Notes under the pieces: generated by a model
What the model was told of the DNA's origin: nothing
Seen by the model: the letters and a program-made list of their open reading frames with translations, nothing else
Databases searched by the model: none
In this document: positions 1-16,100 of the stretch, one piece after another
Position numbering within the stretch: the stretch's first letter is position 1
Layout of the letters: each line of letters opens with the position of its first letter
Origin: Chlamydiota bacterium
GTDB taxonomy: Bacteria; Chlamydiota; Chlamydiia; Chlamydiales; SM23-39
Length of the DNA: 16,100 nt
Assembly (NCBI GenBank): GCA_050049995.1
Contig: JASFVE010000043.1
Location: forward strand, 1 to 16,100
Direction: 5' to 3'
Program-made: the position numbers and the translations under genes

Positions 1-1
1 A

Positions 2-202
2 GATCTTGTAAAGAAATATGAAAAGTTAGCAGAATCTCATCCTTTGCTTAGCCTTCCACAAGTCACTCGGGAAATTGATGGGGTTTGGGCTAGGATAGGT
101 AGTATTTCAAATCTTTTGAATTTGCAGAGATTGGAGATAGTTCAGCCAAATAGACTACTAGAAAAATTAAATTTAAATGAAGATTTTCTAAACTGGTGCT
201 AA
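2..202 (+). CDS. 3' end of a hypothetical protein (partial, runs off the left edge); likely paralog of the 544..1119 gene
   Basis: Frame 2 is open from base 2 to TAA at 200-202: DLVKKYEKLAESHPLLSLPQ...RLEIVQPNR...FLNWC*. Its first 16 aa align with GLVVKYSKLAETHRLL in the downstream ORF. Not in the supplied ORF track because the start is outside the window. Confidence 0.7.
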   Translation, partial: DLVKKYEKLAESHPLLSLPQVTREIDGVWARIGSISNLLNLQRLEIVQPNRLLEKLNLNEDFLNWC

Positions 203-263
203 ATTGACCTTAATAATCTAAGAGTAAGTATTCCTATAAAAGAAGGCTTGACAGACGCATAGT

Positions 264-286
264 TTGCTCTCTTTTAGAGGGAGTAA
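264..286 (+). terminator. Possible weak intrinsic terminator hairpin after the leftmost gene
   Basis: TTGCTCTCTT-TTA-GAGGGAGTAA can form a ~10-bp stem with three G-U pairs; followed by an imperfect T-rich tract (TAGTCTTTT). Confidence 0.3.
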
Positions 287-530
287 TAGTCTTTTAGCTA
301 TTTATTAGAAGCTTGGGAAGTGTTTCATAGATCCAGAGTGTCAAAACATTTGACCTGAAAAATCTATTTGAAGCTGAAGAGATCTATGTCCAACTGTCTG
401 CTCTATAAAGATTGCTTTAGGTCCGAGGTTTAGTAAGTTTTTTATTTTTCAAAAATAGTTAGTGATAGAATTTATTTATCAATTTAAAAATAGCATATTT
501 TATATGTAAATAATTGTTTTTTAATAAAAA

Positions 531-536
531 AGAGGT
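531..536 (+). promoter_or_regulatory. Shine-Dalgarno site for ATG 544
   Basis: AGAGGT 7 nt upstream of ATG at 544, at the end of a very AT-rich intergenic tract. Confidence 0.7.
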
Positions 537-543
537 AATCTAT

Positions 544-1119
544 ATGACATCAATTTCAAATATAACCGAAGCTCCTATCGATTTAATGGCCTTAATTGGC
601 GAATTTTCAGGTAATATTGACTTTTTGCCAGCTGTTTCAAATGAATTGGCAGAAAAAAATCTTCATAAAGCAGCGGAAAAGATCTCTACATTAGCTGCTG
701 AGTTAGCTCCCTGTCTTGCTATGAGTTCTTTGCTAGCAGAGGAGGAGTCACTAGGCAATGAAATAACCGACTTAGAGAAAAGGGATAAAGCTCTTGAAGG
801 TCTTGTAGTGAAATACTCTAAGCTTGCTGAAACCCACCGTTTGCTTAAAACTCCGGAAAAAATAAAGCTTTTAAGTGAAGTTAAAAAAGTAGCTAAGACT
901 CTACAGGGTGAAAAAGCAAAGGAGATAATCCTTATTGGTCTTACTAAAAAAATTGTGGTACTTGAGTTAGTCCAAGCTGGGAAATATCAAGAAGCATTAG
1001 AAATGAATAGACAAGTTGTCGAATTTTCAAAAGCAAATACTCTTAATAATATTGCTGAGAATTATAGAGAAGAAGATGTTGAAGATGCATTTACGATAGC
1101 AGATCTAATTGGATCTTAG
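544..1119 (+). CDS. Hypothetical alpha-helical protein (191 aa), possible T3SS effector with TPR-like C-terminal helices
   Basis: ORF 514..1119; ATG 544 with an SD is preferred over TTG 514. Ser/Thr-rich N-terminus (MTSISNITE), amphipathic helical content, TPR-like segments (LVQAGKYQEALEM; EEDVEDAFTIADLI). Its 3' end overlaps the yidD-like gene convergently by 15 bp. Confidence 0.75.
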   Translation: MTSISNITEAPIDLMALIGEFSGNIDFLPAVSNELAEKNLHKAAEKISTLAAELAPCLAMSSLLAEEESLGNEITDLEKRDKALEGLVVKYSKLAETHRLLKTPEKIKLLSEVKKVAKTLQGEKAKEIILIGLTKKIVVLELVQAGKYQEALEMNRQVVEFSKANTLNNIAENYREEDVEDAFTIADLIGS

Positions 1120-1509
1120 TTTTTTGTCTTCCAAGGCAGGATCGAATTTATAAGTACATCCATTGACATCTATCGTTCTATATACCCATGGGTCGGAGTT
1201 TTCTCTCATAAGGCGGTCACACCCCATAACAAACCCTTTTACAAAGCCATATCTTTGAATAGCTAGCTCCATATATTTGGAGCTGGTGGGCCTAAAGTTA
1301 CTTTTAGGTCCATTAGCAGGGGAGATGTTTTTTTGATAAAAGTGAATGACACCATTAGCAATTTTTCTTCCTACAGTTTTTTTTTGCGGAATAGATTGAT
1401 GGGCTTTTTTTTGAAGCAAGATAGTATCTTTTCCCCAAGGTTCCTGAAAAGGTTCTTTGGCAAAAATAAAAATAGGTAGTAGAAGTATGATTAACTTTTT
1501 AAAATCCAT
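1105..1509 (-). CDS. yidD: YidD-like (membrane protein insertion efficiency factor / haemolytic domain) protein with N-terminal signal-like segment
   Basis: HFYQKNISP...NFRPTSSKYMELAIQRYGFVKGFVMGCDRLMR matches the YidD pattern YQxxISP...CRFxPTCSxYxxxAIxxxGxxKG; starts with MDFKKLIILLLPIFIFA. Confidence 0.8.
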   Translation of the reverse strand: MDFKKLIILLLPIFIFAKEPFQEPWGKDTILLQKKAHQSIPQKKTVGRKIANGVIHFYQKNISPANGPKSNFRPTSSKYMELAIQRYGFVKGFVMGCDRLMRENSDPWVYRTIDVNGCTYKFDPALEDKKLRSN

Positions 1510-2443
1510 ATTGCAATGAAAATACAGGAAACAGGCGATAGTGGTTCATAACTGATGAGGCCATTTCTTCGTAGACTCTTTCATTATAGTATCTAGCCTC
1601 TAGTCCTGCCCCGTGAATCCCTCCAAAATACCATCCAAACTCAAAACTTGTAGTTAGCAAACCTGCAGATATTTGACCATTTAAAAAAAAGTGGGTAGCA
1701 GCTCCAATAAACAGTCCATTGATTAAAAAAGAAGTTAAAGCAGCTTTTTTCTGACCTACATATAAATAGCCAGCGCCAGGAATAAAAGCATTTAAAGCTT
1801 TTGCTTTGTTAATAGACTTTTTATTTTTCTCATACGCATCCAGCATTAGCGTAATATCTTCTTTATAGGGAGTATTTTGAGACAAGCATTCTGCTCTTTC
1901 TATATCAGGCTGCATTAAAGCCATAGAAAGATCAATTTTCTCAGCAGTTTTAGGATAGTTCTTTTTTAATAAGTCTAACGCAGTATTTGCTTTATCTAGA
2001 TCGCCTATCTGTAAATAACTGCTATATAAAACGATTAACAAGTCATGAAAAGTCGTGAAAGATTTGTCTATATGATCTAGTTCGGATCTTTCAAAAGTTA
2101 TCACTACATCTTCATATTTTTTCGCAAGAAAATAGCAGAGGATTATATTGTATTGTATTTCTAGCTTTCTAGTTTCCTTTTCTTCCGGGACTAAAATAGA
2201 GGCTCTTTTAAATGTTGATACTGCTCGGTAAAGATCCATTTCTTTTGCAAAAGCAAGAGCAATTAAATATTCTTTTCCCCATTCCTCTCGTTTTTCAGCA
2301 TCAGAGATAGGAGCAAAAGCAGGTTTGAGCTCATCTAGGTATTTTTCTTCTAGTCTATAGTTAATTTGAGGCTGGATTTTATCTTGTACACGATAACAAC
2401 TACAACAAAGTAGTAAAACAAAAAGGCATATCCTATTCATCAT
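1499..2443 (-). CDS. TPR-containing putative lipoprotein with C-terminal TM2-like hydrophobic region
   Basis: Likely start ATG 2443 or 2440 (MMNRICLFVLLLCCSC, lipobox-like), overlapping the cdsC stop. TPR-like helices (DLYRAVSTFKRA; CYFLAKKYEDVV; SYLQIGDLDKA), TM2-like ALNAFIPGAGYLYVG, C-terminus SLQYGF. Confidence 0.8.
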   Translation of the reverse strand: MMNRICLFVLLLCCSCYRVQDKIQPQINYRLEEKYLDELKPAFAPISDAEKREEWGKEYLIALAFAKEMDLYRAVSTFKRASILVPEEKETRKLEIQYNIILCYFLAKKYEDVVITFERSELDHIDKSFTTFHDLLIVLYSSYLQIGDLDKANTALDLLKKNYPKTAEKIDLSMALMQPDIERAECLSQNTPYKEDITLMLDAYEKNKKSINKAKALNAFIPGAGYLYVGQKKAALTSFLINGLFIGAATHFFLNGQISAGLLTTSFEFGWYFGGIHGAGLEARYYNERVYEEMASSVMNHYRLFPVFSLQYGF

Positions 2444-5400
2444 CGTAAGATTTAATCTTTTCCATAGCTTCATCGAACTCTGACTCTAAAACAGGTGCGC
2501 CAGTTTCTTCTCTAAAATAATCTTCTTGTTTTCCTGTAATGTCTTGAAGATCTTCTAAAGAGTTTAAAATATGGGGCCTTAAGAAAATAACAATGTTGTT
2601 AAAGGAATCAACATTATTATTTAAATTGAACGCAGCTCCAATTAATGGGAGACCACCTAAACAAGGAAGGCCGGATTTTTGCCTGTCTTTAGTTTGAGAA
2701 ACTAAGCCAGTTAAGATTAAAAAGTGCTTATTGGGAACATGGAAGGTAGTATCCAAGCTTGTTTTATTGGTTGTTACACCTTGTACATTTCCAACATTGA
2801 GAGTAATGCCACCACCAGTGTCAGTTGAAGACCTAGATAAAGACAAGTTTAAGGTAACTATGTCAGAGTTTCCAAGAACTGGTGTAATTTCCAAATTGGT
2901 ACCGATATCTCGGTATTCAATATTGGTAGTATTAACAACGTTATTTCCTTGGTTGGTGACAAAAGATCCAACAAAAGGGATGTTTTGACCAATAAATAAA
3001 GTCGACTTCTTACTGTCTTGTGCAAACACTTTTGGGGTAGTTACAATAATAGTCTCGCGGTCATTTTGCAGAGCCTTCATTAAGGATCCCATAGAGACAA
3101 AAGAGGCTCCCTTATGGAAAATCACATCTCCTATTGCGCCGAAACTAAATCCACTATTGGCAAAAGGTATCGTAGTTCCTTGAGGTGTATTAGTAGCATT
3201 TATACTTTGAAAGTTAGTAGAAAAAGCATCTGTTGTAGAATTGGCATTACTAATACTTGTAGCCGCTTTATCTTTCCACTTTCCTTTTCCAAGCCAATCT
3301 AGACCAAACTCCAATGAGTTAGAAAGAGAAGTCTCAATGACCAACACTTCAATAAATACTTGCTTTAAGGGAATATCTAAACTTTTAATCAGCTCCCTTA
3401 GTCTTGCTAAAGTTTGAGGGTCAGCTGTACATAAAAGAGAGTTAGTGACTTCAATCCACTGCACAGCATTAATAGCATCTAATAAAACTTGGTTTTGAGG
3501 AACTTTTGATTCTGATAAATCTTTTGCAATAGACCTAAGGGCTGCTCTAATAGATTCTCCTTTATGGTATTGCAATTTGTAGACTAGAAAGCTGGTTTGC
3601 TCACCAGGTTGTATTGTAGGTTCAATATGAGGAGCGATGCCATCAACTACATCTACTTCTCTTAAAAGCCCTTTTACTTTTTCCAGTGTTTGTGGATCAG
3701 CTGTAATGATAAGAGACTTATTAGCCTCTACCCATCTAGCATTATTTAAGGCTTGGTATAAAAGAGGGTCGGAAAGCCCCGTCATTTTTAAATTATCAGC
3801 AAAATCTTCTAACTGCTTTTGTAGTTCAGTTCCGCTTAAATATTTTGGTTTGTAAACAAAGAAGGTCTCACCAGCTGGTCCCATTTCTACTCGACCTGCT
3901 AAGCTTTTGACATCAAACTTTTCTACTAAGGCTTGCGCCTTTTCTAAAGAAGTCGGATCCCCAGTAAACAATAGAGAGTTGGTTTCAGGAACATACTTCA
4001 TGCTCTCTAATGTTTTTAAAAAGTTTTTGTCAGATGTGCCAGATCGTTTTAAGTCTTTTAATATTTGTCTGATAGATGCTTGAATCTGATTTCCTGAAGC
4101 ATTTTTGAGTTTATACAAAAGAAATGTAGTTTTGCCTATTTGTTGAATAGGTCCTTGGGCATTTTCATCATCAATATTTTGTAAAATAACTTGCAGCTTT
4201 TTTATAGCTGAAGGATCTCCAGTAAAGATAAGAGTCTGAGTAGTGTCGGAGTAGCGCATGCTTTTAATCAGATTAACTAAAGCTGAGTCACTTAAGTCTG
4301 ATTTTTTTAAATTTGAAACAAGTTCATTCAGTGATTTTTGCAATAGTTCAGGCGGTAAGAATTTAGGTTTGTACATAAATAAATCTGCCCGCTTACTATC
4401 ATCTCTGATAACGTCAAACTTATTTAAAATTTCTTTTGCCTCTTGTATTGCTTTAGAATCACCTGTAAGCAAAATGGAGTTAGTCTCTCTTACCCATTTT
4501 GCATTGTCCAATACTTTAATTAGCTCACTATCTTTTAGTCCTGTAGATTTTAAGTTGTCTGCAAAACGCTCCAAATCCTCTTCAATTAAAGCGCCAGATA
4601 CATTTTGCAGCTTGTAAAGAAAATAAGCAGAAAAGGATTGTTTCTCTACTTCAGGACTATCAAAAGAGTTTAAAATTTCCTGAACTTGGTTGAGCGCATC
4701 TTGTGTTCCAGAAAACATTAGCGATCTAGACTCAGGTACATAGCGCATAGACCGGATAGCAGCTACTACTGGCTCATTTTTTAGGCCTGATTTGCTTAAG
4801 TTCAGTGTTACTTGCTTTAAGTATTCTTCAGCTCTTTCTCTGCTGACATACTTTAAAGGATGGATCCAGTACGTTGCTTTGGCATACTGAGCTGTTTCTT
4901 TTCCATCAACATCTTGTAAAAGAGCTTCCAACCGTTTTAATGATTCAGGGTCGCCAGTAAATAAAATAGTTTGTGTGGATTTTACATACTTTCCGCTATC
5001 AATAGCTCTTATTAAAGCAGGATCAGATAGTTGTGAATCTTCTAGGTTTTTAGCAAGGTCTTTTAGTGATTCTAAAATCTGATCACCAGTAAGGTAAACA
5101 GGACGGTGAACTAAAAATTGACTACTAATAGGCAGAAGACCATCGACTTGATCAAAACTAGGTAGGAAATTTTGAAGCTTTTGAACTCCACTTTGAGGTC
5201 CTGTAAAAAGCAGGGAATTAGAATCTTTTAAGTATTTCATCGAGTCAATAGTCTCAATAAGATCCTGTTCAATCACATCAGCTTTCTTTAAATCTTTTAC
5301 CATGGAGTTGAGAGCGTCAATAAGACCCTGTGAAGTCGTCTTCTCGATTTTGTACATCCAAAATGTTTTTTGCCTTCCCTTTACGTCACTATCAGAAGCA

Positions 5401-6680
5401 TTGTCAATGCTATTTAAAATCTCTCTGATTTTTTCAAATGTTACGGGGTCGCCAGTAAATAATATTGATTGTGTGGAAGGAATTACCTTTGCATTTTGCA
5501 GTGACTCAATAAGGGTTTGGTCCGTGTATTTAGAAAGGGCTAGATTTTTTGCGTATTCGTCAATGGCCTTTTTTGTGGCTGAAATACTTAAAAATTGAGG
5601 CTTATAAATAAAAAAGCGAGTTGACTCTGAAAAAGCAGCTTTGCCTGGAGCATCTAAACTCAATAGAAACTCTTTTACTTTAGCTAAAGAGGCTGGGCTA
5701 CCCATAAAAAGAATAGAGTTTGTCTCAGGGATAAATTTCTGAGTCTCGATTGTTTCTATAAGGTCTTTATCAAGAACGCCTGATTCTTTTAAAGTACTTG
5801 CAATATTGGAAAGTGCCTTGACAAGCTCCATTGCGTTTTTTTCTTGCGCTTTATAAATAAGAAGATTTTCTCCTTTTACACGCTTACCTTTTGTTTTTGC
5901 GTCTGGCTCTACATCTAAGTTACTGAAAATAGCGATTGCTTTTTCTACAAGTCGAGGCGTTGAAACAATGTAAATTGTGTTGGCGATATCATGTGGCACT
6001 AAAATGAATGGACTTCCTTGAGACAGGGGGGCCATAAGCTGGCTTGCCAAGCTGATTAGATATTCAGGCTGGTTAAAACGAACTTTGTAAGGCTCAATCT
6101 CCAAAGGGGTCTCAGGAGAGTCTAGATTTTCAATAAGGGATTCCACCTTTTCTAGGTTAGTCGTGATGTCTGTTAGGATTATTTGCCTAGTTTCCGGTAA
6201 AACATCTAGAACTGCTTGAGCAGATATCATGGATTGAATAATAGCTGCAATAGACTCTACAGAAGTGTTCTTTACTCGAAATACTTTAGTGATAATAGGA
6301 ATTTCAGGATTAAGCTCTTCGGTAGAAGAAGACACATGCGCTAGTTGCTTTACACTATCTGATTTAGTAATAAGAAGACTTCCTTCTTGCTCTAGTAAGT
6401 TCAATCCATGAATTCTTAGTGTCTGTATTAATGTAGACATTAAGTTTTCACGGGTAATAGGCTCATCGGAAACAACAGTGATAGTTAAATTTGCAAGTTC
6501 ATTTTCATCATAGATGAAATTAGTTTTGCAAATTTTCCCAACAAACTTAACATACTCGAGCAAAGAGACATTTGTGTAGTTAATGGTAAAACCATTTTCC
6601 TGAGCGACTATGCTTTCAGGTAAAGAAAGGGAACTAAAAAAAATAATAGAAAAGATAATTTTACGAAAAACATTTTGCAT
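2433..6680 (-). CDS. cdsC: T3SS outer-membrane secretin CdsC/SctC, greatly elongated (~1415 aa)
   Basis: Signal peptide from ATG 6680 (MQNVFRKIIFSIIFFSSLSLPESIVA), N0 domain (FTINYTNVSLLEYVKFVGKI), N1/N2, ten N3-like repeats, secretin domain (KQVFIEVLVIE; IEYRDIGTNLEITP; SGLPCLGGLPLIGAAF; IVIFLRPHI). Position after pkn5 as CT674. Confidence 0.95.
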   Translation of the reverse strand: MQNVFRKIIFSIIFFSSLSLPESIVAQENGFTINYTNVSLLEYVKFVGKICKTNFIYDENELANLTITVVSDEPITRENLMSTLIQTLRIHGLNLLEQEGSLLITKSDSVKQLAHVSSSTEELNPEIPIITKVFRVKNTSVESIAAIIQSMISAQAVLDVLPETRQIILTDITTNLEKVESLIENLDSPETPLEIEPYKVRFNQPEYLISLASQLMAPLSQGSPFILVPHDIANTIYIVSTPRLVEKAIAIFSNLDVEPDAKTKGKRVKGENLLIYKAQEKNAMELVKALSNIASTLKESGVLDKDLIETIETQKFIPETNSILFMGSPASLAKVKEFLLSLDAPGKAAFSESTRFFIYKPQFLSISATKKAIDEYAKNLALSKYTDQTLIESLQNAKVIPSTQSILFTGDPVTFEKIREILNSIDNASDSDVKGRQKTFWMYKIEKTTSQGLIDALNSMVKDLKKADVIEQDLIETIDSMKYLKDSNSLLFTGPQSGVQKLQNFLPSFDQVDGLLPISSQFLVHRPVYLTGDQILESLKDLAKNLEDSQLSDPALIRAIDSGKYVKSTQTILFTGDPESLKRLEALLQDVDGKETAQYAKATYWIHPLKYVSRERAEEYLKQVTLNLSKSGLKNEPVVAAIRSMRYVPESRSLMFSGTQDALNQVQEILNSFDSPEVEKQSFSAYFLYKLQNVSGALIEEDLERFADNLKSTGLKDSELIKVLDNAKWVRETNSILLTGDSKAIQEAKEILNKFDVIRDDSKRADLFMYKPKFLPPELLQKSLNELVSNLKKSDLSDSALVNLIKSMRYSDTTQTLIFTGDPSAIKKLQVILQNIDDENAQGPIQQIGKTTFLLYKLKNASGNQIQASIRQILKDLKRSGTSDKNFLKTLESMKYVPETNSLLFTGDPTSLEKAQALVEKFDVKSLAGRVEMGPAGETFFVYKPKYLSGTELQKQLEDFADNLKMTGLSDPLLYQALNNARWVEANKSLIITADPQTLEKVKGLLREVDVVDGIAPHIEPTIQPGEQTSFLVYKLQYHKGESIRAALRSIAKDLSESKVPQNQVLLDAINAVQWIEVTNSLLCTADPQTLARLRELIKSLDIPLKQVFIEVLVIETSLSNSLEFGLDWLGKGKWKDKAATSISNANSTTDAFSTNFQSINATNTPQGTTIPFANSGFSFGAIGDVIFHKGASFVSMGSLMKALQNDRETIIVTTPKVFAQDSKKSTLFIGQNIPFVGSFVTNQGNNVVNTTNIEYRDIGTNLEITPVLGNSDIVTLNLSLSRSSTDTGGGITLNVGNVQGVTTNKTSLDTTFHVPNKHFLILTGLVSQTKDRQKSGLPCLGGLPLIGAAFNLNNNVDSFNNIVIFLRPHILNSLEDLQDITGKQEDYFREETGAPVLESEFDEAMEKIKSYDDE
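3375..5864 (-). repeat. Ten tandem ~83-aa secretin N3-like repeats within cdsC
   Basis: Ten recurrences of approximately FxYKxxxxxxxxxxxxLxxxxxxLxxSxxxDxxLxxxIxxxKxxxxTNSLLFTGDPxxLxKxxxxLxxxD, from LLIYKAQE (aa 284 of the listed ORF) to ELIKSLD; 2490 nt in total. Confidence 0.92.
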
Positions 6681-6734
6681 TTTTAAGAAACCATAAAAGC
6701 ATGCGTTTTGCAATTTTGCTGCACTCTTACTAAA

Positions 6735-6763
6735 ATCGTAAAATACTAATCTAATAATTGCAA
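6735..6763 (-). promoter_or_regulatory. Putative sigma66 (sigma70-type) promoter for cdsC
   Basis: Minus strand TTGCAA (6763-6758), 17-nt spacer, TACGAT (6740-6735), about 55 nt upstream of ATG 6680. Confidence 0.55.
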
Positions 6764-6840
6764 TCTTTCATAGAGCTAAAAAAAAAATTACACCTTTTCT
6801 TTTTACTATCATATTTGATTTATTTAAATCACTTTTATTT

Positions 6841-6864
6841 AAAAAACTGAACAATCAGTTTTTT
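6841..6864. terminator. Perfect 10-bp inverted repeat: weak bidirectional terminator or operator between pkn5 and cdsC
   Basis: AAAAAACTGA-ACAA-TCAGTTTTTT, 120 nt downstream of the pkn5 stop. Confidence 0.45.
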
Positions 6865-6983
6865 GTGGGAATTACACGTCAATTCTTTGAAGAATATTTA
6901 ATTGAGATCTTTGTCTTGTTATATTCTTAACACTTTTTTTCAGATAATCTTTAGAGATCAGCCCTTGCACAAAAAACTTTGAT

Positions 6984-8540
6984 TTAAAAAATTCTATGGA
7001 GCGCAATTGCCGTTGAGTTCTTTTGAGATTTGATATCTTGCTTGCTTAGAATTTCAGACAAGATTTTTTCTGACTGTACTTGTGGAGATAAAAAAATATA
7101 ATCGGAAATAGCAGTATCAAAAGAAGGTATTTCTTTGGAATTCATAGAGCAAAGTAATAATAAATCAGAACTTTTCCAATTAGCAGCAGTTTCTAAAAAA
7201 GAGGAATCACTACTTTTTCCAATGGGGTCATTGGGAGTTGTTAATGCTTTATAGTTAGAACTGTCAGAAGGCAAGTGATACAAAGAGCTATGGGCACAAG
7301 AAATGAATACCATGCGATCTTTTTCTGGTATAAGCAATAAAAGAGAAAGTCCAAAAGAGTTGGGGTAAGTTTGTTTATCAAGTGCTACAAATCTGTTAAT
7401 AGTATGCGTGAAAGTAAGTGGGTGAAATTCATTTTGCTGATTTTCTATAAGGGTATGTATCATCCCTTTAAGAGCAGCAATAGGAAGGAGAGTAGACAGT
7501 CCTTCTTGTAAAGGTTCTGCTATTATAACTAAGTACTGATCATTGGGCAGCTTGTGAAAGTCATACAGCGCTCCTGTCATAAACTCTGCTTTTTGCTGAG
7601 AAAAACCAATTTCAATTTGTGGCCATGTGGGAGCTTTTTGTGAAAAGAAATCCTTTTTTAATGAGAGAAAACTATCGAGTGTCTTGTTATCTAAAGAAGT
7701 GGGTATTTCATCGCGTGTTTTCTTTAAGAAAAGGGTTATTTCACTTATTACATCTACTATATCTTGATAGCGATCTTGTGGATTTACCATTAAAGATTTT
7801 TCAATAATCTTCTGAAGAGATCCAGGCAAAAAAGATAGATGGATAACGCCATGCGAAAGTCTTCCTAAGATGAGTTCATAGGCAATAATTCCCAATGAGT
7901 AAATATCCGATGAAAAAGATACTTTATTAGGATTTTCTTTTTGTTCAGGGCTCATGTAATTTGGCGTGCCTATCAGACGAGATTTTTTAGATGTTATTTC
8001 TTCTTCTTGATGAAGCTGGGCTATGCCAAAATCAATGACTTTAACTTTACCAGACTCTGTAATGAGGATGTTTTCAGGTTTTAAGTCTCTGTGGATAACT
8101 CCATGAGTATGTAAGTGTAATAAGGCATAAGCTACTTGGAGTATAATATCCAGAGCTTTGGTCTGCGATAAAGATTTTTGTAGAATAAATTGCCTTAAAG
8201 AAACACCCTGAACAAACTCCATAGCAATATATAATCCTTTCTCCCACTTTCCTTGGCCAAAAACTTTTATAATGTTGGGGTGGTCAGTCATGGAAATGAT
8301 TTCAGCTTCCTTTAAAAATCGTGAGACCATTTCTTTGTTGGTGATATATTTAGGCGACAAAATTTTTACAACTAAAGGCTCGTGAGTTTCAGGATGACTT
8401 GCAAGGTATAAAATACTCATGCCACCTTTACTAAGAGGGCTTTCAATACGATAGGGTCCAATTATGGATGGGGTGGCGAACGATACATCTTTAGTTAAAT
8501 GAGGCTTAGTGTTTTGATGATATATATTTTCTTTAGTCAT
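6984..8540 (-). CDS. pkn5: Ser/Thr protein kinase Pkn5 with degenerate SpoIIE/PP2C-like C-terminal domain
   Basis: Hanks motifs SKGGMSILY, VVKIL, RFLKEA, HPNII, HRDLKPEN, DFG, GTPNYMSPEQ, DIYSLG; syntenic with CT673. Confidence 0.92.
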   Translation of the reverse strand: MTKENIYHQNTKPHLTKDVSFATPSIIGPYRIESPLSKGGMSILYLASHPETHEPLVVKILSPKYITNKEMVSRFLKEAEIISMTDHPNIIKVFGQGKWEKGLYIAMEFVQGVSLRQFILQKSLSQTKALDIILQVAYALLHLHTHGVIHRDLKPENILITESGKVKVIDFGIAQLHQEEEITSKKSRLIGTPNYMSPEQKENPNKVSFSSDIYSLGIIAYELILGRLSHGVIHLSFLPGSLQKIIEKSLMVNPQDRYQDIVDVISEITLFLKKTRDEIPTSLDNKTLDSFLSLKKDFFSQKAPTWPQIEIGFSQQKAEFMTGALYDFHKLPNDQYLVIIAEPLQEGLSTLLPIAALKGMIHTLIENQQNEFHPLTFTHTINRFVALDKQTYPNSFGLSLLLLIPEKDRMVFISCAHSSLYHLPSDSSNYKALTTPNDPIGKSSDSSFLETAANWKSSDLLLLCSMNSKEIPSFDTAISDYIFLSPQVQSEKILSEILSKQDIKSQKNSTAIALHRIF

Positions 8541-8569
8541 TCTAGAAACAGTTTAAGGAAGAAGTTTCT

Positions 8570-9625
8570 TCAAGTCATTTCAGTTATGCGAACGCCAAAA
8601 GCTTCGCCAACTTTTACGAGTTCGCCTTTCCCAAGGTAATTTCCATTTAAAGTTAAATCAATGTCCTGTTCAATATTGTGAGGTAGATCAATCGTCTCTC
8701 CCTCTTCTAAGGTCATTAACTGCTTAAAAGGGATTTTAAAAGAACCTATTTCAACATGAAGGTTTAAAGGAAGGTCTTGCTCTTCCTCATTTAACGCTTC
8801 ATCTTTTGGCTCTTCTTCAGAAAAAGCTGCCCCTATGATTTTTATTTTATCTTGTTTTAATTTTGCTTGGAATAGGGGAGTATTTTCCAGTTGGAGAAGG
8901 ACAAATCCTTGATGTAGTTTGCTATCATAATAAGTTTTATCTAATAAAATAACGTCACCGAGGGTAATCGTTTCTAATATATTTTCACTTATGGCTGTTT
9001 CAGCAATAAGAGCCTTAAAATTAAGGCTAAAGGATTCTGTAACAGGCAATTTGGTAAAATCAATAGCACTTTTAATCTGATTATCCCAAGAGTCAATAAA
9101 ACCTTTTGTTAGAAAAACTTTTGCAAAACATGTTTGTTGCAGATAGGTAATTTGCAAGTCGATAACAAGACAGGCTTCTTTTATTTCCGTTGTTTCTTGA
9201 GCAATTTTAAAGGAAAGGCCTTGGCAAAGGTCATCTTGCTCTACGATATCGAGGGTTTCAAGAACCATGTATCGATAAAAGCCTTCCTGAAGCAGTTCAG
9301 AAGAAAAGCTGCTACCTTCCCCTTTTTTGAATAAAGCCCAGGAGATAATTTTAGAAATTTCCTCTTGATCCATGAACAAGTAACAATTTTCTAAAACTGG
9401 CTGAGTTGCAATTTCAATAAAAAAGTTTTCACTGTTAGAAAGACTTTCAAATTCTTCAGGAGTTAGCCAATAGCTTTTTAAAGGTTCAATTTTGAAGTCT
9501 TCCAACTCAAACTTCTCGGAAAATTTCTTGCTAAAGCTATTCCAAGAAAACGCATCGATTCCTACTGGAACTTCTACAATATTCTGTATTTTTTCTTGTA
9601 TCTGTGTATTCCAAAGCGTTGTCAT
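8570..9625 (-). CDS. cdsQ: T3SS cytoplasmic ring / sorting platform protein CdsQ/SctQ
   Basis: C-terminal SpoA/FliN domain (DLPLNLHVEIG...GKGELVKVGEAFGVRITEM) preceded by a first SpoA-like half (LGDVILLD); syntenic with CT672. Confidence 0.92.
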   Translation of the reverse strand: MTTLWNTQIQEKIQNIVEVPVGIDAFSWNSFSKKFSEKFELEDFKIEPLKSYWLTPEEFESLSNSENFFIEIATQPVLENCYLFMDQEEISKIISWALFKKGEGSSFSSELLQEGFYRYMVLETLDIVEQDDLCQGLSFKIAQETTEIKEACLVIDLQITYLQQTCFAKVFLTKGFIDSWDNQIKSAIDFTKLPVTESFSLNFKALIAETAISENILETITLGDVILLDKTYYDSKLHQGFVLLQLENTPLFQAKLKQDKIKIIGAAFSEEEPKDEALNEEEQDLPLNLHVEIGSFKIPFKQLMTLEEGETIDLPHNIEQDIDLTLNGNYLGKGELVKVGEAFGVRITEMT

Positions 9626-9626
9626 T

Positions 9627-10601
9627 TTACTTTCCTAAATCTTCTCCAGACATATCTCCACCCGATGCAGATCTTTTTCTTCGAAAAAGCGGTCTTGTTG
9701 TTTCGTGGGCAGCTTCTAGTCTACCTATTCTAAAGTTTAAGTTTGATTTCTGAAAAGCTTCCATTAAAGATTCCATATTAGCATTAAAAATGGTCACGGC
9801 TTCAGGAGAACCAGTTAAGCGAATATTAAAAGAATCTGGAGCTGTAGCATATTTTTCCAATACTACTGAAGAGCCAAAAAAAACGGAATTTTCAAAATTA
9901 GCACTGGTCAAGTCAATTTGCGTTTGCATAATCCCTTCTTTAGCGCTCATAATTACCATTCTTCCAACCATCTGTTCAAATAAAGGAGCAATTTCAGGAT
10001 TTAAAAAGACTTTTACTGAATTGGTAATTTCAGAGGCCTTTTGCACAATTTCAGCTGGCATTGCAATAGGAAGAGAAGGAAGTGGTGTTTCCGTTTCTTT
10101 TTTCTTTTCTTCTGGTTCTTCCTTTGCCTTAGGCGCCTCTACGTCTTTTTCTGATTCAAGATGTTTTTGCTCTATACGTTCATCCGGCTTTGGAGGTAGG
10201 TAAGTTGTAACTTTTGCTTCTTTAGATTCTGTCGGATGTTTAGGTGAAACAGGTTTTTTCTTGTCATATTCCTTTGCCTCTTCCATACCGCCTTCTTTCG
10301 AAGATATAGACTTTTCTTCTTTTCCCAGCTCTGACTTTTGTTCTACGCCTTTAACTGGCTCTTGCTTTTCAGCAGGTCCCTTATCATAAAAGGTTGTTTC
10401 ATAAGGGGAAGGCTTTTTTTCTTCAGGAGCAGCTTTAGACTCTGTTTCTTTTTCAAAGTGTTGTCTAAATTTTCTTCTTTTCTTTTCTTCTGGATCTACT
10501 TCTCTGGCTCTTTCTACCTTCTTATGCTTTTCTGCAAATTCATCAGCTCTAGAAGTTTTTCCTTTATCATCTGGTGGTAGTGGTCTCATTGGGCCTATCA
10601 T
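9627..10601 (-). CDS. cdsP: CT671-like protein, putative needle-length ruler CdsP/SctP
   Basis: Long K/E/P-rich disordered N-terminus and folded C-terminal domain (SVFFGSSVVLEKYATAPDSFNIRLTG); located between cdsO and cdsQ. Confidence 0.8.
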   Translation of the reverse strand: MIGPMRPLPPDDKGKTSRADEFAEKHKKVERAREVDPEEKKRRKFRQHFEKETESKAAPEEKKPSPYETTFYDKGPAEKQEPVKGVEQKSELGKEEKSISSKEGGMEEAKEYDKKKPVSPKHPTESKEAKVTTYLPPKPDERIEQKHLESEKDVEAPKAKEEPEEKKKETETPLPSLPIAMPAEIVQKASEITNSVKVFLNPEIAPLFEQMVGRMVIMSAKEGIMQTQIDLTSANFENSVFFGSSVVLEKYATAPDSFNIRLTGSPEAVTIFNANMESLMEAFQKSNLNFRIGRLEAAHETTRPLFRRKRSASGGDMSGEDLGK

Positions 10602-10637
10602 CCTTTTCTTTGCTCCTTATACTTATAGATTAATCAT

Positions 10638-11138
10638 TCAAGATGATTTTTTCTTCTTATTTTTACGGGAATACAAGGCAGCTCCAATTTCATCTTGCTC
10701 CGCAGCTTCTTTTCTTGTTTCTTCTTTTTCCATTTCGCTCATCCATTCCTTTTTATGAGTAGTAAGCTTTTCGACATCTTTTTGTTTTTGGTATAAGTCT
10801 TTTTTGGCAGCTTCTACCTGTTCTTCCGCTAACCTTACCTGTTTTTTTTGGGCATCGACTTGCTTTTCTTTCTCTGCTAGACGCTCATCTACGACTTCTT
10901 TGTAGCGCTTCATTTGTTGAATTTTATCTGTCCTTTCACCTTGATCTAGAGCTTGTCGTAACTGATGAAGCTTTTCCAGTTTGTGTTTTAATACTTTATC
11001 CCTTTCTCTCTCTTTTTCTTTTAACTTTTCTTCTTCCTCTAAAAGTTGTTTTTTCTTTTTTTCTAAAATACGGGCAGCTTCTTGAAACCGCCTTTCTTTG
11101 ATCTCAACTAACTCTTGAAGAGGGTAGTCAGCGCTCAT
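10638..11138 (-). CDS. cdsO: T3SS stalk protein CdsO/SctO (CT670-like)
   Basis: YPLQELVEIKERR start, long K/E coiled coil, EQDEIG near the end; TAATG overlap with the cdsN stop. Confidence 0.9.
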   Translation of the reverse strand: MSADYPLQELVEIKERRFQEAARILEKKKKQLLEEEEKLKEKERERDKVLKHKLEKLHQLRQALDQGERTDKIQQMKRYKEVVDERLAEKEKQVDAQKKQVRLAEEQVEAAKKDLYQKQKDVEKLTTHKKEWMSEMEKEETRKEAAEQDEIGAALYSRKNKKKKSS

Positions 11139-12454
11139 TAAAATAGATTTTTAAGCAGGTTAAGAGTTTCTTCAAAACTAGACTTCTCAAGAACGCCTTG
11201 CTTTAAGAACTGATTGACTTTATCAATGTATTTGATGGCAAAGTCAGCATCTTTGTCAGAGCCAGGTTTATATTCTCCAATTCGAATCAGCAATTCATTT
11301 TTTTTGTAGTTTGCTAACACTTCTCTTATCTTTCCAATAACTTGCTGGTGCTCTTTGTCAGTAATATGCGTTAAAATACGTGAGACAGATGATAAAACGT
11401 CAATAGCAGGGTAATGGTGTTGCCTCGCTAAGTCTCTAGACAAAATGATGTGACCATCTAGAATGGATCTTGTTTCGTCAGCAATTGGCTCATTTAAGTC
11501 ATCTCCAGCTACCAATATAGTATAAAATCCTGTGATAGAGCCTTTGTCTGAGTTTCCAGACCTCTCTAAAAGTTTAGGAAGGGTGGAAAATACAGAAGGG
11601 GTAAATCCAGCTCTAGCAGGGGGTTCACCTGCTGCAAGGCCGATCTCTCTTAAGGCCCTTGCATATCTAGTAACCGAGTCCATCATTAAAATGACGGATT
11701 TGCCTTGGTCGCGAAAATATTCAGCAATGGCCGTTCCTACATAAGCTGCATTAATTCTCAGTTGAGGGGCTTGATCAGAAGTGGAAACTATCACTACAGA
11801 TCTTTTCAGACCTTCTTCTCCAAGATCATTTTTAAGAAACTCTCTTACTTCTCTTCCCCGTTCTCCAATCAGTGATATAACATTAACGTCTGCTTTAGCA
11901 TTTTTGGCGATCATTCCTAAAAGTGTTGACTTACCGACACCTGCAGCTGCAAAGATACCTACTCTTTGTCCTTTACCACAGGTTAAAACTCCATCAATAC
12001 TTTTTATTCCAACAGATAATGGCTCATCAATAATAGAGCGCTTTAATGGATCAGGAGGCGGAGCAATTACAGGGACACTTTCAGGTAAGTCTTCAATAGG
12101 TCCTAAAGTATCTTCATCCATGGGTTTTCCCACACCATTTAAAACGCGACCTAAAAGTTTAGGACCTACTTTAATGTGTAAAGGTAGTCGCATTGGGATT
12201 ACTTCAGATGAAGGCCCTATACCAGACATTTCGCCTAATGGCGACAAGAGTACTTCATCTTTAGTAAAGCCGACTACTTCAGCAACTAAAGGATCTCCCT
12301 CTCTTTTAATTAAGCAAACTTCGCCTAGTTTAACTTGAGGGATTACTGCCTTAATCAGCATTCCGATTGCCTCAGTAATTCTTCCATGGACAGTTGTCAA
12401 TTCAACATCTTCCAAGTGAGAAATCAAATTATCTAAGGGAGATTTAGGATCCAT
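11138..12454 (-). CDS. cdsN: T3SS ATPase CdsN/SctN
   Basis: GQRVGIFAAAGVGKSTLLGM (Walker A), LIGERGREVREF, LMMDSVTRYARA (Walker B), GEPPARAGFTPSVF, YPAIDVLSSVSR. Confidence 0.98.
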   Translation of the reverse strand: MDPKSPLDNLISHLEDVELTTVHGRITEAIGMLIKAVIPQVKLGEVCLIKREGDPLVAEVVGFTKDEVLLSPLGEMSGIGPSSEVIPMRLPLHIKVGPKLLGRVLNGVGKPMDEDTLGPIEDLPESVPVIAPPPDPLKRSIIDEPLSVGIKSIDGVLTCGKGQRVGIFAAAGVGKSTLLGMIAKNAKADVNVISLIGERGREVREFLKNDLGEEGLKRSVVIVSTSDQAPQLRINAAYVGTAIAEYFRDQGKSVILMMDSVTRYARALREIGLAAGEPPARAGFTPSVFSTLPKLLERSGNSDKGSITGFYTILVAGDDLNEPIADETRSILDGHIILSRDLARQHHYPAIDVLSSVSRILTHITDKEHQQVIGKIREVLANYKKNELLIRIGEYKPGSDKDADFAIKYIDKVNQFLKQGVLEKSSFEETLNLLKNLF

Positions 12455-12456
12455 AA

Positions 12457-13101
12457 TTATAATTGGATGTTAATCATCTGTTTTAATACATCAATAGTTT
12501 TACTTAGCAAAATAGAAGCGTATTCTAGATTTTGCTGTGCCTGAGCCAGTTTTACTTGTACCAGCATCATATCACCAGGATTAAGCTGGCCTTCGTTATC
12601 TTTTAAATCAAGTAAAGCCTGTTGGGCTTCATGTAATTGATTTTCCCCATTTGTGACAAGTCCTATAAATCTTTCGACAGGGCTTGCTCCCGAAGGAATG
12701 TTCATGGGGGTGGCAACTTGAGCTCCCATTTTATTAGAAGCTGCCATTAAATGAGTATTTGCTTCCGATAATTTATTTCTAAGAAGATGCTCTTGAGATC
12801 GCTTAAACTTAAGATTAGGCGTTTGCAGCATCTTTTTGACATTTTCGAAATTTGAATGGGTAGTATTTACCTGGGCTAATAAGGAGTCTAATGTTGGTTG
12901 ATTAGCTCCTTGCAGTCCTCCTTGTGCAAGTTCCATAGGACTTACTCCGGATGTACCTTGTGGGGCTGCTCCAGGGGTTTGCCCAGGAGCTTGCTGCATA
13001 TATGAATCAAATTGCGATTTATCCGGCGTTAATTTTGGTTTTTCCCCAGTGGGTTCAATAGGACCGCCAGGGCCAGTAGGGGGAGGTGTTTGTTCTGCCA
13101 T
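12457..13101 (-). CDS. CT668-like T3SS-associated protein; candidate inner rod SctI
   Basis: Position between cdsG and cdsN; Pro/Gly-rich N-terminus; C-terminal NPGDMMLVQVKLAQAQQNLEYASILLSK helix hairpin. Confidence 0.8.
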   Translation of the reverse strand: MAEQTPPPTGPGGPIEPTGEKPKLTPDKSQFDSYMQQAPGQTPGAAPQGTSGVSPMELAQGGLQGANQPTLDSLLAQVNTTHSNFENVKKMLQTPNLKFKRSQEHLLRNKLSEANTHLMAASNKMGAQVATPMNIPSGASPVERFIGLVTNGENQLHEAQQALLDLKDNEGQLNPGDMMLVQVKLAQAQQNLEYASILLSKTIDVLKQMINIQL

Positions 13102-13104
13102 ATA

Positions 13105-13536
13105 TTATTTTTGTTTTTTCATTCCTTCGACAGGAGTAGGTGTTTTTTTGATAAATTTTTCCACAAAATCAAGAGCTGAAACAGAAAGATTCTTAATAAG
13201 TGAATCACTGGATTTTGCAGTTGATTCTAAAATCTTTTCGGCTTCGTTTACCCCTTTAGGAGTAAAGCTTAAACTCAAGCCTAAAAATGTTTTAGCCATT
13301 TCATTTTCAGGTTCTTCTTTTAAAACACTTTCAAAAAGTTCTACAGCTTGCTTAAGCTCTAGTTTGTGTAAGTGTAAATAGCCTATGCCTACTTTAGGCA
13401 GGGTGCTTTTAGGATCTAATAGCTCAGCTGCTTTAAAAAGTTTTCGTGCGGCATCTTCGTCTGCTTGATTAACAGCTATAAACCCAGACTCTAAAAGCAG
13501 TATAAAATCTTCTTTGTAACCTTGAATAAAAGACAT
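13105..13536 (-). CDS. cdsG: Needle chaperone CdsG (TPR)
   Basis: FILLLESGFIAVNQADEDAARKLFKAA matches the CT667 N-terminus as recalled; TPR helices; follows cdsF. Confidence 0.9.
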   Translation of the reverse strand: MSFIQGYKEDFILLLESGFIAVNQADEDAARKLFKAAELLDPKSTLPKVGIGYLHLHKLELKQAVELFESVLKEEPENEMAKTFLGLSLSFTPKGVNEAEKILESTAKSSDSLIKNLSVSALDFVEKFIKKTPTPVEGMKKQK

Positions 13537-13547
13537 ACTCCCTCAGA

Positions 13548-13796
13548 TTACTGGGTTTTCTGGTTACGTACCGCATTATTAATAACGGAATTAACCTGTG
13601 AAATTAAGTTAGAAATTGACTCACCAATCTGAGTTACTTGGGCCATTTGAAATTGCACAAGCAAAAATTGACCAGGAGTTGCCTGACTCATAGAGGATGC
13701 TAGTTTTTTTACTTGCTGAACCAAGCTTGACTGTAATTTTGCATAAGCTTTAATCAATGATGAAAATGAGAGTGTTACTCCAGGGAGTTTTGCCAT
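13548..13796 (-). CDS. cdsF: T3SS needle subunit CdsF/SctF
   Basis: 82-aa helix-turn-helix; FLLVQFQMAQVTQIGESISNLISQVNS resembles chlamydial CdsF C-helix; located between cdsE and cdsG; SD AGGAG upstream. Confidence 0.85.
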   Translation of the reverse strand: MAKLPGVTLSFSSLIKAYAKLQSSLVQQVKKLASSMSQATPGQFLLVQFQMAQVTQIGESISNLISQVNSVINNAVRNQKTQ

Positions 13797-13815
13797 TAGT
13801 TTCTCCTTTAAAGTT

Positions 13816-14049
13816 TTAAGATTTGGCGATTTTATTTAATACTTTTCGAAGGGCCGTATAACCGTGAAGAAGGCTACCTAATTTATCAAAGTCTTCTTCA
13901 CCCTGACCCGATCGCATTTTTGTTTTAAGCTCTTCAATTCTTTTTTCGGCGAGTTCAATATATTTTTTCCCTTTGTCGGAATCATTTTTGATTTCTTCTT
14001 CCAAGTCAAAGGCAAACTGTTCAGGTTCTTTTTTTTCTAATCCGTACAT
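13816..14049 (-). CDS. cdsE: Needle chaperone CdsE (CT665-like)
   Basis: FDLEEEIK...MRSG...FDKLGSLLHGYTALRKVLNKI typical of the CT665 family; SD AAGGA upstream; synteny. Confidence 0.9.
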   Translation of the reverse strand: MYGLEKKEPEQFAFDLEEEIKNDSDKGKKYIELAEKRIEELKTKMRSGQGEEDFDKLGSLLHGYTALRKVLNKIAKS

Positions 14050-14061
14050 GCTGTCCTTTTT

Positions 14062-15888
14062 TTACGGGTTATAATCGATTTTATATTTTAGGCCATCTTT
14101 TTCAAGTAGAATCATATTTTTCTGGATGGATGTAATGTCCATGCCATCTAGTGAATCGCCTAAAGTTAGAATTTGTCCATTAATTACCACGCTATAATTA
14201 TTGCTGTCATACTTTGCATAACCTGTTATTTGATAGTTCGCGGTTAAATTAATTCTGGCAGAAGACTCGCTGGAACCTACTGCTATATTTTGCACAGAAC
14301 GTATTCCGGGTATCTCTTCTAGTTGTGCAACAGTATCTTGATATTTTCGGTTTTCCTTTTCATTAAAAAAACCAGATAAGGTTAAAGCACCATTGTTAAG
14401 TTGAAATAAAATACCATCCAATCCATTTGACTGTAAAATTGCTTGTACTTGCATAGTTAAATTTTGTTCAACATATACTTTATTTTCTAGCTTATCTAAA
14501 AAAGGAAAGTGGGTATTTAAATAATCATCTAAGTTATCTTTCTCTTCATTAGTTGCAAGATATCCGGAAATGATAAAATGACCTGCTTCTGTGGCGTAGA
14601 CATTAATTCCTTTCCAGTCCGCATTTTCTACTAAAACATCATTGATGTTTTTCCAAATATACTCATCAATGATGATGTTATCTTCTACAGAGTAAATAAA
14701 GGGGAGTGCTTTTAGATCATAAAGCAGCTCTTGTTGATCAACCTTAGTAAGTACATGTCCTGTTAAAAAAAGTTTTCCGGTGGCAGGGTTATAAGAAAAC
14801 TCAACGTCATTGTATTTTTTTAAAGCTTCATGAATTTTTTCTACCGGTTTTTTGGTAACAACTTCCATTTTTTGACTTTTAAAAAGAGAAAAAAAGCTTA
14901 AAAACACAATTAGTAAAGTAACCACACCGCCAATGGCAAGGGCTATATACTTTGTAGGTATGATGCTTTCTTTCCAATCAGTGGGGAGTACTTCTTCTTC
15001 AGGCTCTTCCTCTACTTCTTCCTCTGGTTCAACTTCTTCAAAAGCTGCATAGGCAGGCGAGTAGATTGTTTCTTGAGCTGCTTCCTTATCTAAAATAACA
15101 AAAGTAGTTGTTCCGCAGGCAATGAGATCTTGTGAGGTTACATGCTTTAGTTCTTCGATAAGAACCCCGTTAAGCCTTGTTCCATTTTTGGAATGGAGAT
15201 CTTCAATGGTAATAATTCCTTCACTGTCAATTGTTAGTTTGGCGTGGTTTCTGGATACGCTTAAATCTTGAAACACAATCTCACAGCTATTAGGGTCTTT
15301 GCCGATTAAATAGGTCTTATTTTTTTCCAATCCAATCTCAGCGCCTGCATTAGGCCCTGAAATCACTTTAAGAAGCAAGGGGGTATCCCCAATTAAATGA
15401 AAAGGAACTTCTTCTTCGGATTCTTCAAAGATGGTGTCATAGGCATTTCTCGCCTCGGGTTCTACTTCAGACTCGCTATCAGGCTCATTTTCTTCAGCAG
15501 AAAATTCTTCAGGCTCTTCTAGAGAACTGAAAATGTTGTCATAGCTACTTTCATTTTTTTTTTCCTCTGTCTTTTCGTCTTCTAAAGATGATTCTTCAGA
15601 AAAAAGAAAGAGTGTTTGTCCTATGCGAACTCTATCGCCCTCTTTCAAAAGGGTTTTTCCTGTAAATTCTTCTTCGTTGATCAAGGTGGGGTTGATACGG
15701 CTTAGATTTTTTATAAAAAATCCTTCGTCACCAAGAGATATTTCAGCGTGCTTGCGGGATACAGTAGCATCTTCTAAAACATAATCTGTCTGGTCGGGAT
15801 CTCTTCCAATAATCCAAAGATTCCCTTCTTTAAAATCTAAAACGAGTCCCTGTAGTGGACCTTCTTCTGCAATAAAGTGTGCTGCCAT
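14062..15888 (-). CDS. cdsD: T3SS inner-membrane ring protein CdsD/SctD with two FHA domains
   Basis: FHA1 (IGRDP...VSRKHA...SRINPT), acidic linker, FHA2 (IGKDP...VSRNHA...SKNGT), TM helix (YIALAIGGVVTLLIVFLSFFSLF), BON-like periplasmic domains, chlamydial-type end EKDGLKYKIDYN. Confidence 0.95.
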   Translation of the reverse strand: MAAHFIAEEGPLQGLVLDFKEGNLWIIGRDPDQTDYVLEDATVSRKHAEISLGDEGFFIKNLSRINPTLINEEEFTGKTLLKEGDRVRIGQTLFLFSEESSLEDEKTEEKKNESSYDNIFSSLEEPEEFSAEENEPDSESEVEPEARNAYDTIFEESEEEVPFHLIGDTPLLLKVISGPNAGAEIGLEKNKTYLIGKDPNSCEIVFQDLSVSRNHAKLTIDSEGIITIEDLHSKNGTRLNGVLIEELKHVTSQDLIACGTTTFVILDKEAAQETIYSPAYAAFEEVEPEEEVEEEPEEEVLPTDWKESIIPTKYIALAIGGVVTLLIVFLSFFSLFKSQKMEVVTKKPVEKIHEALKKYNDVEFSYNPATGKLFLTGHVLTKVDQQELLYDLKALPFIYSVEDNIIIDEYIWKNINDVLVENADWKGINVYATEAGHFIISGYLATNEEKDNLDDYLNTHFPFLDKLENKVYVEQNLTMQVQAILQSNGLDGILFQLNNGALTLSGFFNEKENRKYQDTVAQLEEIPGIRSVQNIAVGSSESSARINLTANYQITGYAKYDSNNYSVVINGQILTLGDSLDGMDITSIQKNMILLEKDGLKYKIDYNP

Positions 15889-15892
15889 TTTT

Positions 15893-16099: not shown

Positions 16100-16100
16100 C

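Follow-up and report, generated by a model that had tools for sequence, protein, structure and literature searches.

Why would the outer-membrane ring of an injectisome carry ten copies of a domain that secretins of its kind normally carry once? The question is raised by a stretch of 16,100 nucleotides from a Chlamydiota bacterium of the GTDB lineage SM23-39 (assembly GCA_050049995.1, in 122 contigs; contig JASFVE010000043.1, positions 1 to 16,100, forward strand), here called the window, which contains a type III secretion (T3SS) operon that ends in the secretin gene cdsC. In secretins of this kind N0 docks on the SctD ring, the barrel is embedded in the outer membrane and the N domains stack as rings. 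A first-pass annotation of the window had reported ten tandem N3-type domains in the encoded protein at 3375-5864, and both the count and the coordinates hold, as the ten units together span 5867 to 3375 between N2 and the barrel. The units are derived from N3, they are shared by a single large clade of chlamydiae, and their number co-varies with the length of the presumed needle ruler CdsP, which suggests that they probably stack as rings and lengthen the basal body locally by tens of nanometres.

The cdsC gene (2433..6713; like all features below it lies on the minus strand unless noted) is an intact frame of 1426 codons that starts with TTG. Its first ATG is codon 12 (position 6680), which gives a protein of 1415 aa, and the ESM Atlas entry for CdsC also begins at residue 12; a search of this atlas with CdsC returned ordinary GspD-like clusters and no model. 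A probable Sec signal peptide, predicted from the translation by eye, covers 6597..6680 (residues 12-39) and is followed by the N0 domain (6381..6584, residues 44-111; Pfam PF21305, E 2.8e-9), the model of which superimposes on the N0 of GspD with Z 11.1 and a root-mean-square deviation (rmsd) of 2.2 over 79 residues in the structure comparison. Secretin_N (PF03958) reaches 228 bits on the protein with eight passing stretches, the best of them being N1 (6111..6290, residues 142-201), and some of the units fail individually. N2 lies at 5910..6104 (residues ~204-268), and as the array follows on a single copy each of N0, N1 and N2, the protein has 13 N-type domains in total. The barrel and C-terminal region (2436..3374, residues 1114-1426) match the Secretin family PF00263 at residues 1214-1383 (E 2.2e-31; 109 bits, cut-off 27.5).

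The gene is cdsC (SctC), the secretin of the chlamydial T3SS, and it displays every testable feature of this protein except the single N3, as ten N3-type units are counted where the canonical form has one. A barrel query recovers the operon secretin gene in genomes of family f4, and a separate GspD-like gene is present in every genome searched for it, which marks the window gene as an orthologue of the Chlamydiaceae-type CdsC rather than of the type II secretin. The first-pass annotation had given Chlamydiaceae CdsC as ~920 aa long with one such unit; indeed, a 921-aa CdsC from f4, identical in length to the published C. trachomatis CdsC, has one unit and carries its extra length before N0. 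The window gene is located after cdsN-O-P-Q-pkn5 and has no gspE or gspF neighbours, so it does not qualify as a gspD, and the pilMNOPQ context of PilQ was not found either, with no pil family among the 14 window proteins scanned against Pfam. CdsC is predicted to assemble into a homo-oligomer in the outer membrane and to let the needle pass through it.

The initial estimate of a ~71-aa core and a ~83-aa period was close to the measured values, which are 72-73 aa for the cores and 81-91 aa (mean 84) for the start-to-start distance. The units share 21-41% pairwise identity (mean 31%). When each of the ten is matched to a profile built from the remaining nine, it scores 66-94 bits, while the best score from 200 shuffles per unit is at most 11.5 bits. 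In protein order, with residues and, for R1 to R9, leave-one-out scores, they are R1 (5649..5867, 283-355; 70.9 bits), R2 (5400..5618, 366-438; 76.6 bits), R3 (5148..5366, 450-522; 73.9 bits), R4 (4902..5120, 532-604; 82.3 bits), R5 (4656..4874, 614-686; 66.4 bits), R6 (4410..4628, 696-768; 87.0 bits), R7 (4167..4385, 777-849; 80.7 bits), R8 (3909..4127, 863-935; 93.7 bits), R9 (3648..3866, 950-1022; 83.2 bits) and R10, which adjoins the barrel (3375..3593, 1041-1113). Tandem Repeats Finder detected no DNA-level tandem array in cdsC, the repeats are invisible to self-BLASTP and tblastn, which are too insensitive for this purpose, and BLOSUM autocorrelation of the protein has little signal, confined to lags near multiples of 82-83. 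Because there is no DNA-level array and BLAST is blind to the repeats, the units must be old and diverged rather than products of an assembly duplication.

In an AlphaFold2 model of residues 38-1115, built on an 85-row alignment, all ten units adopt the secondary-structure order of an N domain, beta-alpha-alpha'-beta-beta-alpha, in which the long helix 1 is followed by a short extra helix. The mean predicted local distance difference test score (pLDDT) of the units is 85, and they are connected by linkers of ~10-20 residues with low pLDDT. When R5 was folded alone (pLDDT 91) and compared with 48,161 chains, secretin N domains occupied ranks 1-13 (Z 8.7-7.0, rmsd 1.9-4.0), and R4-R6 taken as a block aligned with N1-N3 of assembled GspD (5zdh) over 191 residues with Z 8.2 and rmsd 8.0. 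Furthermore, a profile of 42 single N3 domains has its best match in R10 (79.8 bits), with N1 and N2 scoring far lower, and R10 maps to the last unit in 75/75 other arrays. R10 is thus the ancestral N3, and the units are N3-derived with the secretin N-domain fold; it follows that the extra helix is a feature of the chlamydial N3 that all copies have inherited. Pfam, the single-N3 profile, AlphaFold2 and the R5 structure search in this way bear out the initial assignment to an injectisome secretin with N3-type repeats. Internal units are much less conserved than the last one, expansion has mostly occurred in the middle of the array, and a recent duplication is visible in the array of locus L089, where two units are 95% identical.

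The array is not a peculiarity of this genome. In a search of 400 scored Chlamydiota genomes (one more was unscorable) with a ten-row profile of the unit, matches were recorded up to 14 per genome and paralogues included; at least three matches were found in 230/235 genomes of 15 families and in 0/165 genomes of the other 29 families. The 143 secretins collected from 140 fetched loci and the window comprise 81 operon secretins with 4-29 units, a few of them cut by contig ends and two having extra weak units, 42 one-unit secretins and 20 short paralogues. A tree of five other operon proteins from the 93 loci that hold both CdsN and CdsO places the 57 array carriers in a single clade (FastTree support 0.999), and the best reading is that N3 was multiplied in the common ancestor of a large clade of chlamydiae. 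All 211 top homologues counted have 8-29 units, in a length-filtered set subject to best-hit bias; a protein named Simkania negevensis (1764 aa) has 14 units and one named Ca. Neptunochlamydia vexilliferae (1269 aa) has eight. The longest arrays occur in L105 (G350), P0161 and P0182 and comprise 29 units in proteins of 2810-2847 aa and 28 units in a protein of 2754 aa. The protein of the window, which had been regarded as exceptional, turns out instead to be a typical ten-unit member of a clade-wide trait. The nearest named record, L001, is 92.7% identical over 11 kb, and a contig scan from a single protein query returned only three loci. Owing to the homologues named Simkania, Neptunochlamydia and Rhabdochlamydiaceae, the array clade would correspond to Group 1 (Simkaniales and Anoxychlamydiales) of Dharamshi et al. 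(PMC9816063, consulted in excerpt).

Two further lineages have lengthened the segment between N0 and the barrel independently of the array clade. In family f10 (L164 and L170, 2/2 loci) CdsC has six tandem N2 copies and one N3, and in family f7 (L143 and L147, 2/2 loci) CdsC proteins of 1761 and 1934 aa contain an insert of 1042-1238 aa between N2 and N3, which is charged, rich in Leu/Glu/Lys/Gln and probably forms a coiled coil. Two one-unit cdsC genes stand in tandem at L135 (G023) and L136 (G122).

If the units lengthen the shaft, they should lengthen the ruler as well, because N0 is joined to the SctD ring of the inner membrane and needle length is set by SctP, a secreted ruler (excerpts of PMC10333785 and PMC4682100). 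In the window, CdsP consists of a ~195-aa charged low-complexity linker and a conserved domain (196-310); it matched no Pfam family, and a home-built profile ties the domain to a 283-aa f4 protein in the same position with 35 bits. This C-terminal domain may be of the T3S4 type. Among 57 array loci with a measurable CdsP (24/81 were dropped because CdsN, CdsO or CdsP was lacking in the stretch, and two values were entered by hand), CdsP length rises with unit number (Spearman 0.73, slope 23.9 aa per unit). Independent contrasts on these loci give r 0.74 and a slope of 21.9 aa per unit, with 31/45 non-zero contrasts in the same direction, and r remains 0.66 when two 21-unit loci are removed. 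Within families f1, f8 and f9 the contrast correlations are 0.77, 0.78 and 0.80, and with genome size as a covariate the slope is 22.5 +/- 2.5 aa per unit (58 genomes).

In CdsD, Q, O, Pkn5, N, G, F and E, length does not rise significantly with unit number, and in the CT668-like operon protein the rise is small (r 0.35, at 0.7 aa per unit). In the array clade the span from N0 to the last N3 correlates with ruler length (r 0.74), whereas the length before N0 does not (r 0.10). A CdsC of 2503 aa at L174 (5391 onward, minus-strand reading; G064) has 1768 residues before N0 and a ruler of 300 aa; G256 resembles it by frame length. The 29-unit genome is outside the ruler data, as its CdsP match is on another contig and has two stops. 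The ruler of Yersinia measures ~0.19 nm per residue, at which 22-24 residues correspond to 4.2-4.6 nm. At a full extension of 0.37 nm per residue (PMC6972891, in excerpt) they correspond to 8-9 nm.

Taken together, the units probably stack as rings and produce a basal body that is locally longer by tens of nanometres. Each extra unit would add one ring of ~4 nm (range 4-9 nm by ruler calibration), so that the basal body may be some tens of nanometres longer than that of C. trachomatis (34 nm), and the longer shaft would be accommodated in a locally widened periplasm or under a raised patch of outer membrane. The needle would have to cross this shaft, and CdsP would lengthen alongside; the short flexible linkers probably permit some compression. 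The added axial length assumed by the first-pass annotation thereby receives indirect support from the co-variation with the ruler.

Several observations weigh against this reading. The predicted template modelling score (pTM) of the CdsC monomer is 0.40, too low to fix the arrangement of the domains. For R5, KH domains follow the secretins at Z 6.9, and this small margin means that sequence evidence is also needed for the N-domain identity; in addition, Foldseek with R5 gave no match with E <0.001, though secretins headed the list. CdsP is presumed to be the needle-length ruler by its position and by analogy. In f9 alone the raw rank correlation is 0.41 (p 0.11), and the CdsP of the window has 324 aa versus 448 predicted, a residual of -124 aa that is about two standard deviations low; the CdsP of the nearest fetched relative is similarly short. 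Even so, the linker of the window CdsP (196 aa) exceeds that of the 283-aa f4 protein (122 aa). Long rulers also occur beside one-unit secretins (765 aa at L149, the longest; 388 and 489 aa in f14; 450 aa in f17), which is to be expected if the ruler may also set external needle length. In single-unit lineages the correlation between span and ruler is r 0.30 (p 0.08, 36 loci; 0.55 without L149), with the f10 rulers assigned by position only. Finally, the type II secretin has not been lengthened: a separate GspD-like gene exists in 80/80 genomes searched, and in the 76 with a unit count its median frame is 784 codons in 51 array genomes versus 787 in 25 single-unit genomes, with rho 0.03 against unit number. 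In the window genome the GspD-like frame is on contig C38, before two frames that by eye resemble GspE and GspF; its C-terminal part (G000:C38:17705-18385, L176) runs off the contig end.

The unchanged GspD speaks against the generally wide periplasm that had been suggested. As it is not lengthened, the whole periplasm is probably not wide, and any widening is more likely to be local or stage-specific. This local widening agrees with C. trachomatis elementary bodies, in which the periplasm is widened only at the injectisome-bearing pole (excerpts of PMC4682100).

Other readings divide the same evidence differently. The array might be an extensible tether, in which the terminal units form fixed rings and the internal ones stretch like an accordion between elementary and reticulate bodies or upon host contact. 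The low-pLDDT linkers and the pTM of 0.40, the weaker conservation of internal units and their mid-array expansion, and the unchanged GspD would all suit such a device, as would the short ruler of the window genome if its array is compressed, and in C. trachomatis the 34-nm basal bodies do contract to 29 nm when they contact the host (PMC4682100, in excerpt). However, a fairly steady 17-26 ruler residues per unit in three families suggests a set length for each unit, and many relatives retain a separate short secretin, which would be less necessary beside a freely compressible one; a tether therefore appears rather unlikely. An outward collar or scaffold, which would add no axial length and would leave the longer ruler to make a longer external needle for the same hosts or surface layers, would account for rulers that change without the secretin, for the short ruler of the window genome, for the unchanged GspD, and perhaps for the extra helix of each unit. 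It is nevertheless improbable, because the units are flanked in the polypeptide by N0, which docks on SctD, and by the barrel, the ruler tracks the N0-to-last-N3 span and not pre-N0 extensions, and the coupling survives within-family contrasts.

The labile copy number (4-29) and the 95% identical units of L089 could also reflect neutral repeat slippage in small endosymbiont genomes, tolerated and unused. No intact operon secretin of the 81 array-clade loci has collapsed to one unit, though, the fold is kept at 21-41% identity, the ruler co-varies, and unit number is not related to genome size (rho 0.13, p 0.33), all of which makes slippage very improbable. An assembly or annotation artefact, conceivable in an assembly of 122 contigs, can for practical purposes be dismissed, since the units are too diverged for mis-assembly and the 8-29 units of the 211 homologues refute it.

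In barrel searches of 160 genomes, most array families proved to contain a second CdsC-like gene of ~450-640 codons, found in 0/27 genomes of the family of the window genome. The short paralogue has an N0-N3-barrel layout without N1 or N2 (20/20) and lies outside the operon. These paralogues are monophyletic (Shimodaira-Hasegawa-like approximate likelihood-ratio support, SH-aLRT, 100) and nested among the long secretins; a long-only clade excluding them was rejected (approximately unbiased test p 0.002; quick tree, LG+G4, 64/143 rows). The short form also occurs among proteins named S. negevensis and Neptunochlamydia, those of S. negevensis having 14 units and 1 unit, and one short paralogue is named Rhabdochlamydiaceae. 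Within the L034-L053 set, short paralogues (L039, L042, L043, L046 and others) often follow an S9 prolyl oligopeptidase gene, and a DUF5399 gene lies nearby on the opposite strand.

Many operons also hold a second, short CdsP-like gene (168-238 aa) whose length does not track unit number, so that two ruler genes stand in tandem in many relatives. This short ruler is present in 45/55 genomes with the short secretin and in 1/19 without it (three uninformative genomes omitted). As 13/18 double negatives come from two families that branch before the duplication, the independent evidence amounts to five joint absences, ten short-secretin-only genomes and one reverse case, which is an 82%-complete genome. 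No second ruler lies beside the short secretin at any of 20/20 short-secretin loci, and neither gene was found in the window genome. The short secretin would presumably serve an injectisome. We tentatively propose that Group 1 chlamydiae may build modular, ruler-matched injectisomes with 4-29 stacked N3 rings, many of them, the cultured S. negevensis included, alongside a second, short injectisome. Under this proposal the short machine would combine the deleted N0-N3-barrel paralogue with the short ruler and serve different stages or membranes, the long shaft could exceed 100 nm in extreme cases, and the family of the window genome would have only the long type.

Among known systems, C. trachomatis CdsC (CT674, 921 aa) is an orthologue and likewise the last gene of a cdsD...cdsN-O-P-Q-pkn5-cdsC operon (PMC4682100 and PMC3459982, in excerpt). 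Both share a GspD-like N0-N1-N2-N3-barrel backbone, but C. trachomatis CdsC has one unit and a 250-residue hydrophilic region before N0, whereas the window protein has ten units and ~30 residues there. Canonical SctC proteins (InvG, MxiD, YscC, EscC) also combine the secretin barrel with ring-building N domains, and R5 aligns to N1 of EscC and N1/N3 of InvG (Z 7.3-7.9); they have three N domains, N0, N1 and N3, in 566-607 aa (excerpts of PMC10333785), versus 13 here. N0-N2 and the single units match GspD, XcpQ and PulD best in structure, and type II secretins are the source from which chlamydial CdsC arose (PMC3459982, in excerpt). Type II secretins have four N domains, and the chlamydial GspD orthologues are unexpanded, unlike CdsC. 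A likely functional parallel is Thermus thermophilus PilQ, in which extra beta-alpha-beta-beta-alpha domains form rings across a wide periplasm, six rings and the barrel measuring 350 A (35 nm; excerpts of PMC5745081), which would amount to an estimated ~4 nm per ring. PilQ belongs to a type IV pilus/competence machine, has six rings versus 13 predicted here and up to 32 in relatives, and differs from array CdsC, in which unit number is variable and coupled to the needle ruler.

CdsP resembles the rulers SctP, YscP, InvJ and FliK in gene position and in its disordered linker with a conserved C-terminal domain. In SctP rulers, needle length grows with protein size (excerpts of PMC4682100 and PMC10333785); unlike in the classical rulers, the natural length variation of CdsP follows secretin architecture. 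We found neither the array nor the short paralogue nor the second ruler described in the literature searched, which mostly does not cover subscription journals. Simkania has reportedly been imaged by cryotomography (Pilhofer 2014). In the consulted parts of Abby and Rocha 2012 and of Nans 2015, the only features mentioned are an N-terminal domain specific to Chlamydia and insertions of small size, and a GspD-related Simkania protein appears in proteomics (PMC12591485, in excerpt) with no length and is not assignable to the long form. Within that literature the array is a previously undescribed variant of chlamydial CdsC, which would be PilQ-like in its working and is not PilQ.

The remaining genes of the operon are in the usual arrangement, and those without a Pfam hit carry names that we presume from chlamydial gene order. 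Upstream of cdsC lie the gene of a Pkn5-like Ser/Thr kinase (6984..8540, 518 aa; Pfam Pkinase, name presumed), cdsQ of the C-ring (8570..9625; FliMN_C), cdsP, encoding the presumed ruler (9627..10601, between cdsO and cdsQ), cdsO of the stalk (10638..11138; YscO-like) and the ATPase gene cdsN (11138..12454; ATP-synt_ab, T3SS_ATPase_C). These are followed by the gene of the CT668-like protein (12457..13101, 214 aa; no Pfam match, conserved slot, name presumed), by cdsG (13105..13536), the needle subunit gene cdsF (13548..13796) and cdsE (13816..14049), presumably so named in view of conserved order, with TPR/DUF5398 hits in this stretch, and by the inner-membrane ring gene cdsD (14062..15888, 608 aa), which has the ordinary set of two FHA domains, CdsD PD1, PD2 and the C-terminal domain. 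The CT668-like protein weakly matches the CdsF needle-subunit profile (21 bits, E 1.8e-4 in the genome), which makes it a candidate for an inner-rod protein of the SctI type. L055, L056, L057, L062 and L071, which belong to the same family as the window, lack the gene of the Pkn5-like kinase between cdsQ and cdsC. A 270-bp AT-rich gap before cdsC (6714-6983) is a candidate for a promoter of its own. On the other side, the cdsC stop is overlapped by the frame of a 324-aa TPR protein (1499-2473, minus strand), the N-terminus of which looks lipoprotein-like by eye, and several array-clade loci have weak partial matches to it immediately downstream of cdsC. TPR lipoproteins serve as pilotins for some secretins; the position of this one may also be plain synteny with a yidD gene. 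A 201-aa frame at 514-1119 (plus strand) has no convincing family.

Injectisome secretins have been treated as a fixed periplasmic part of three or four domains, whereas in the array clade, which makes up more than half of the sampled chlamydial genomes, the number varies from 7 to 32. This variation amounts to a natural experiment that asks if the machine's base is the point from which SctP measures, and it yields a numeric prediction of one ring and ~22 ruler residues per unit. It also predicts the envelope architecture of mostly uncultured chlamydiae, which imaging of cultured species could check. If the short paralogue and the short ruler do form a second machine, one cell would make injectisomes of two sizes from shared core parts.

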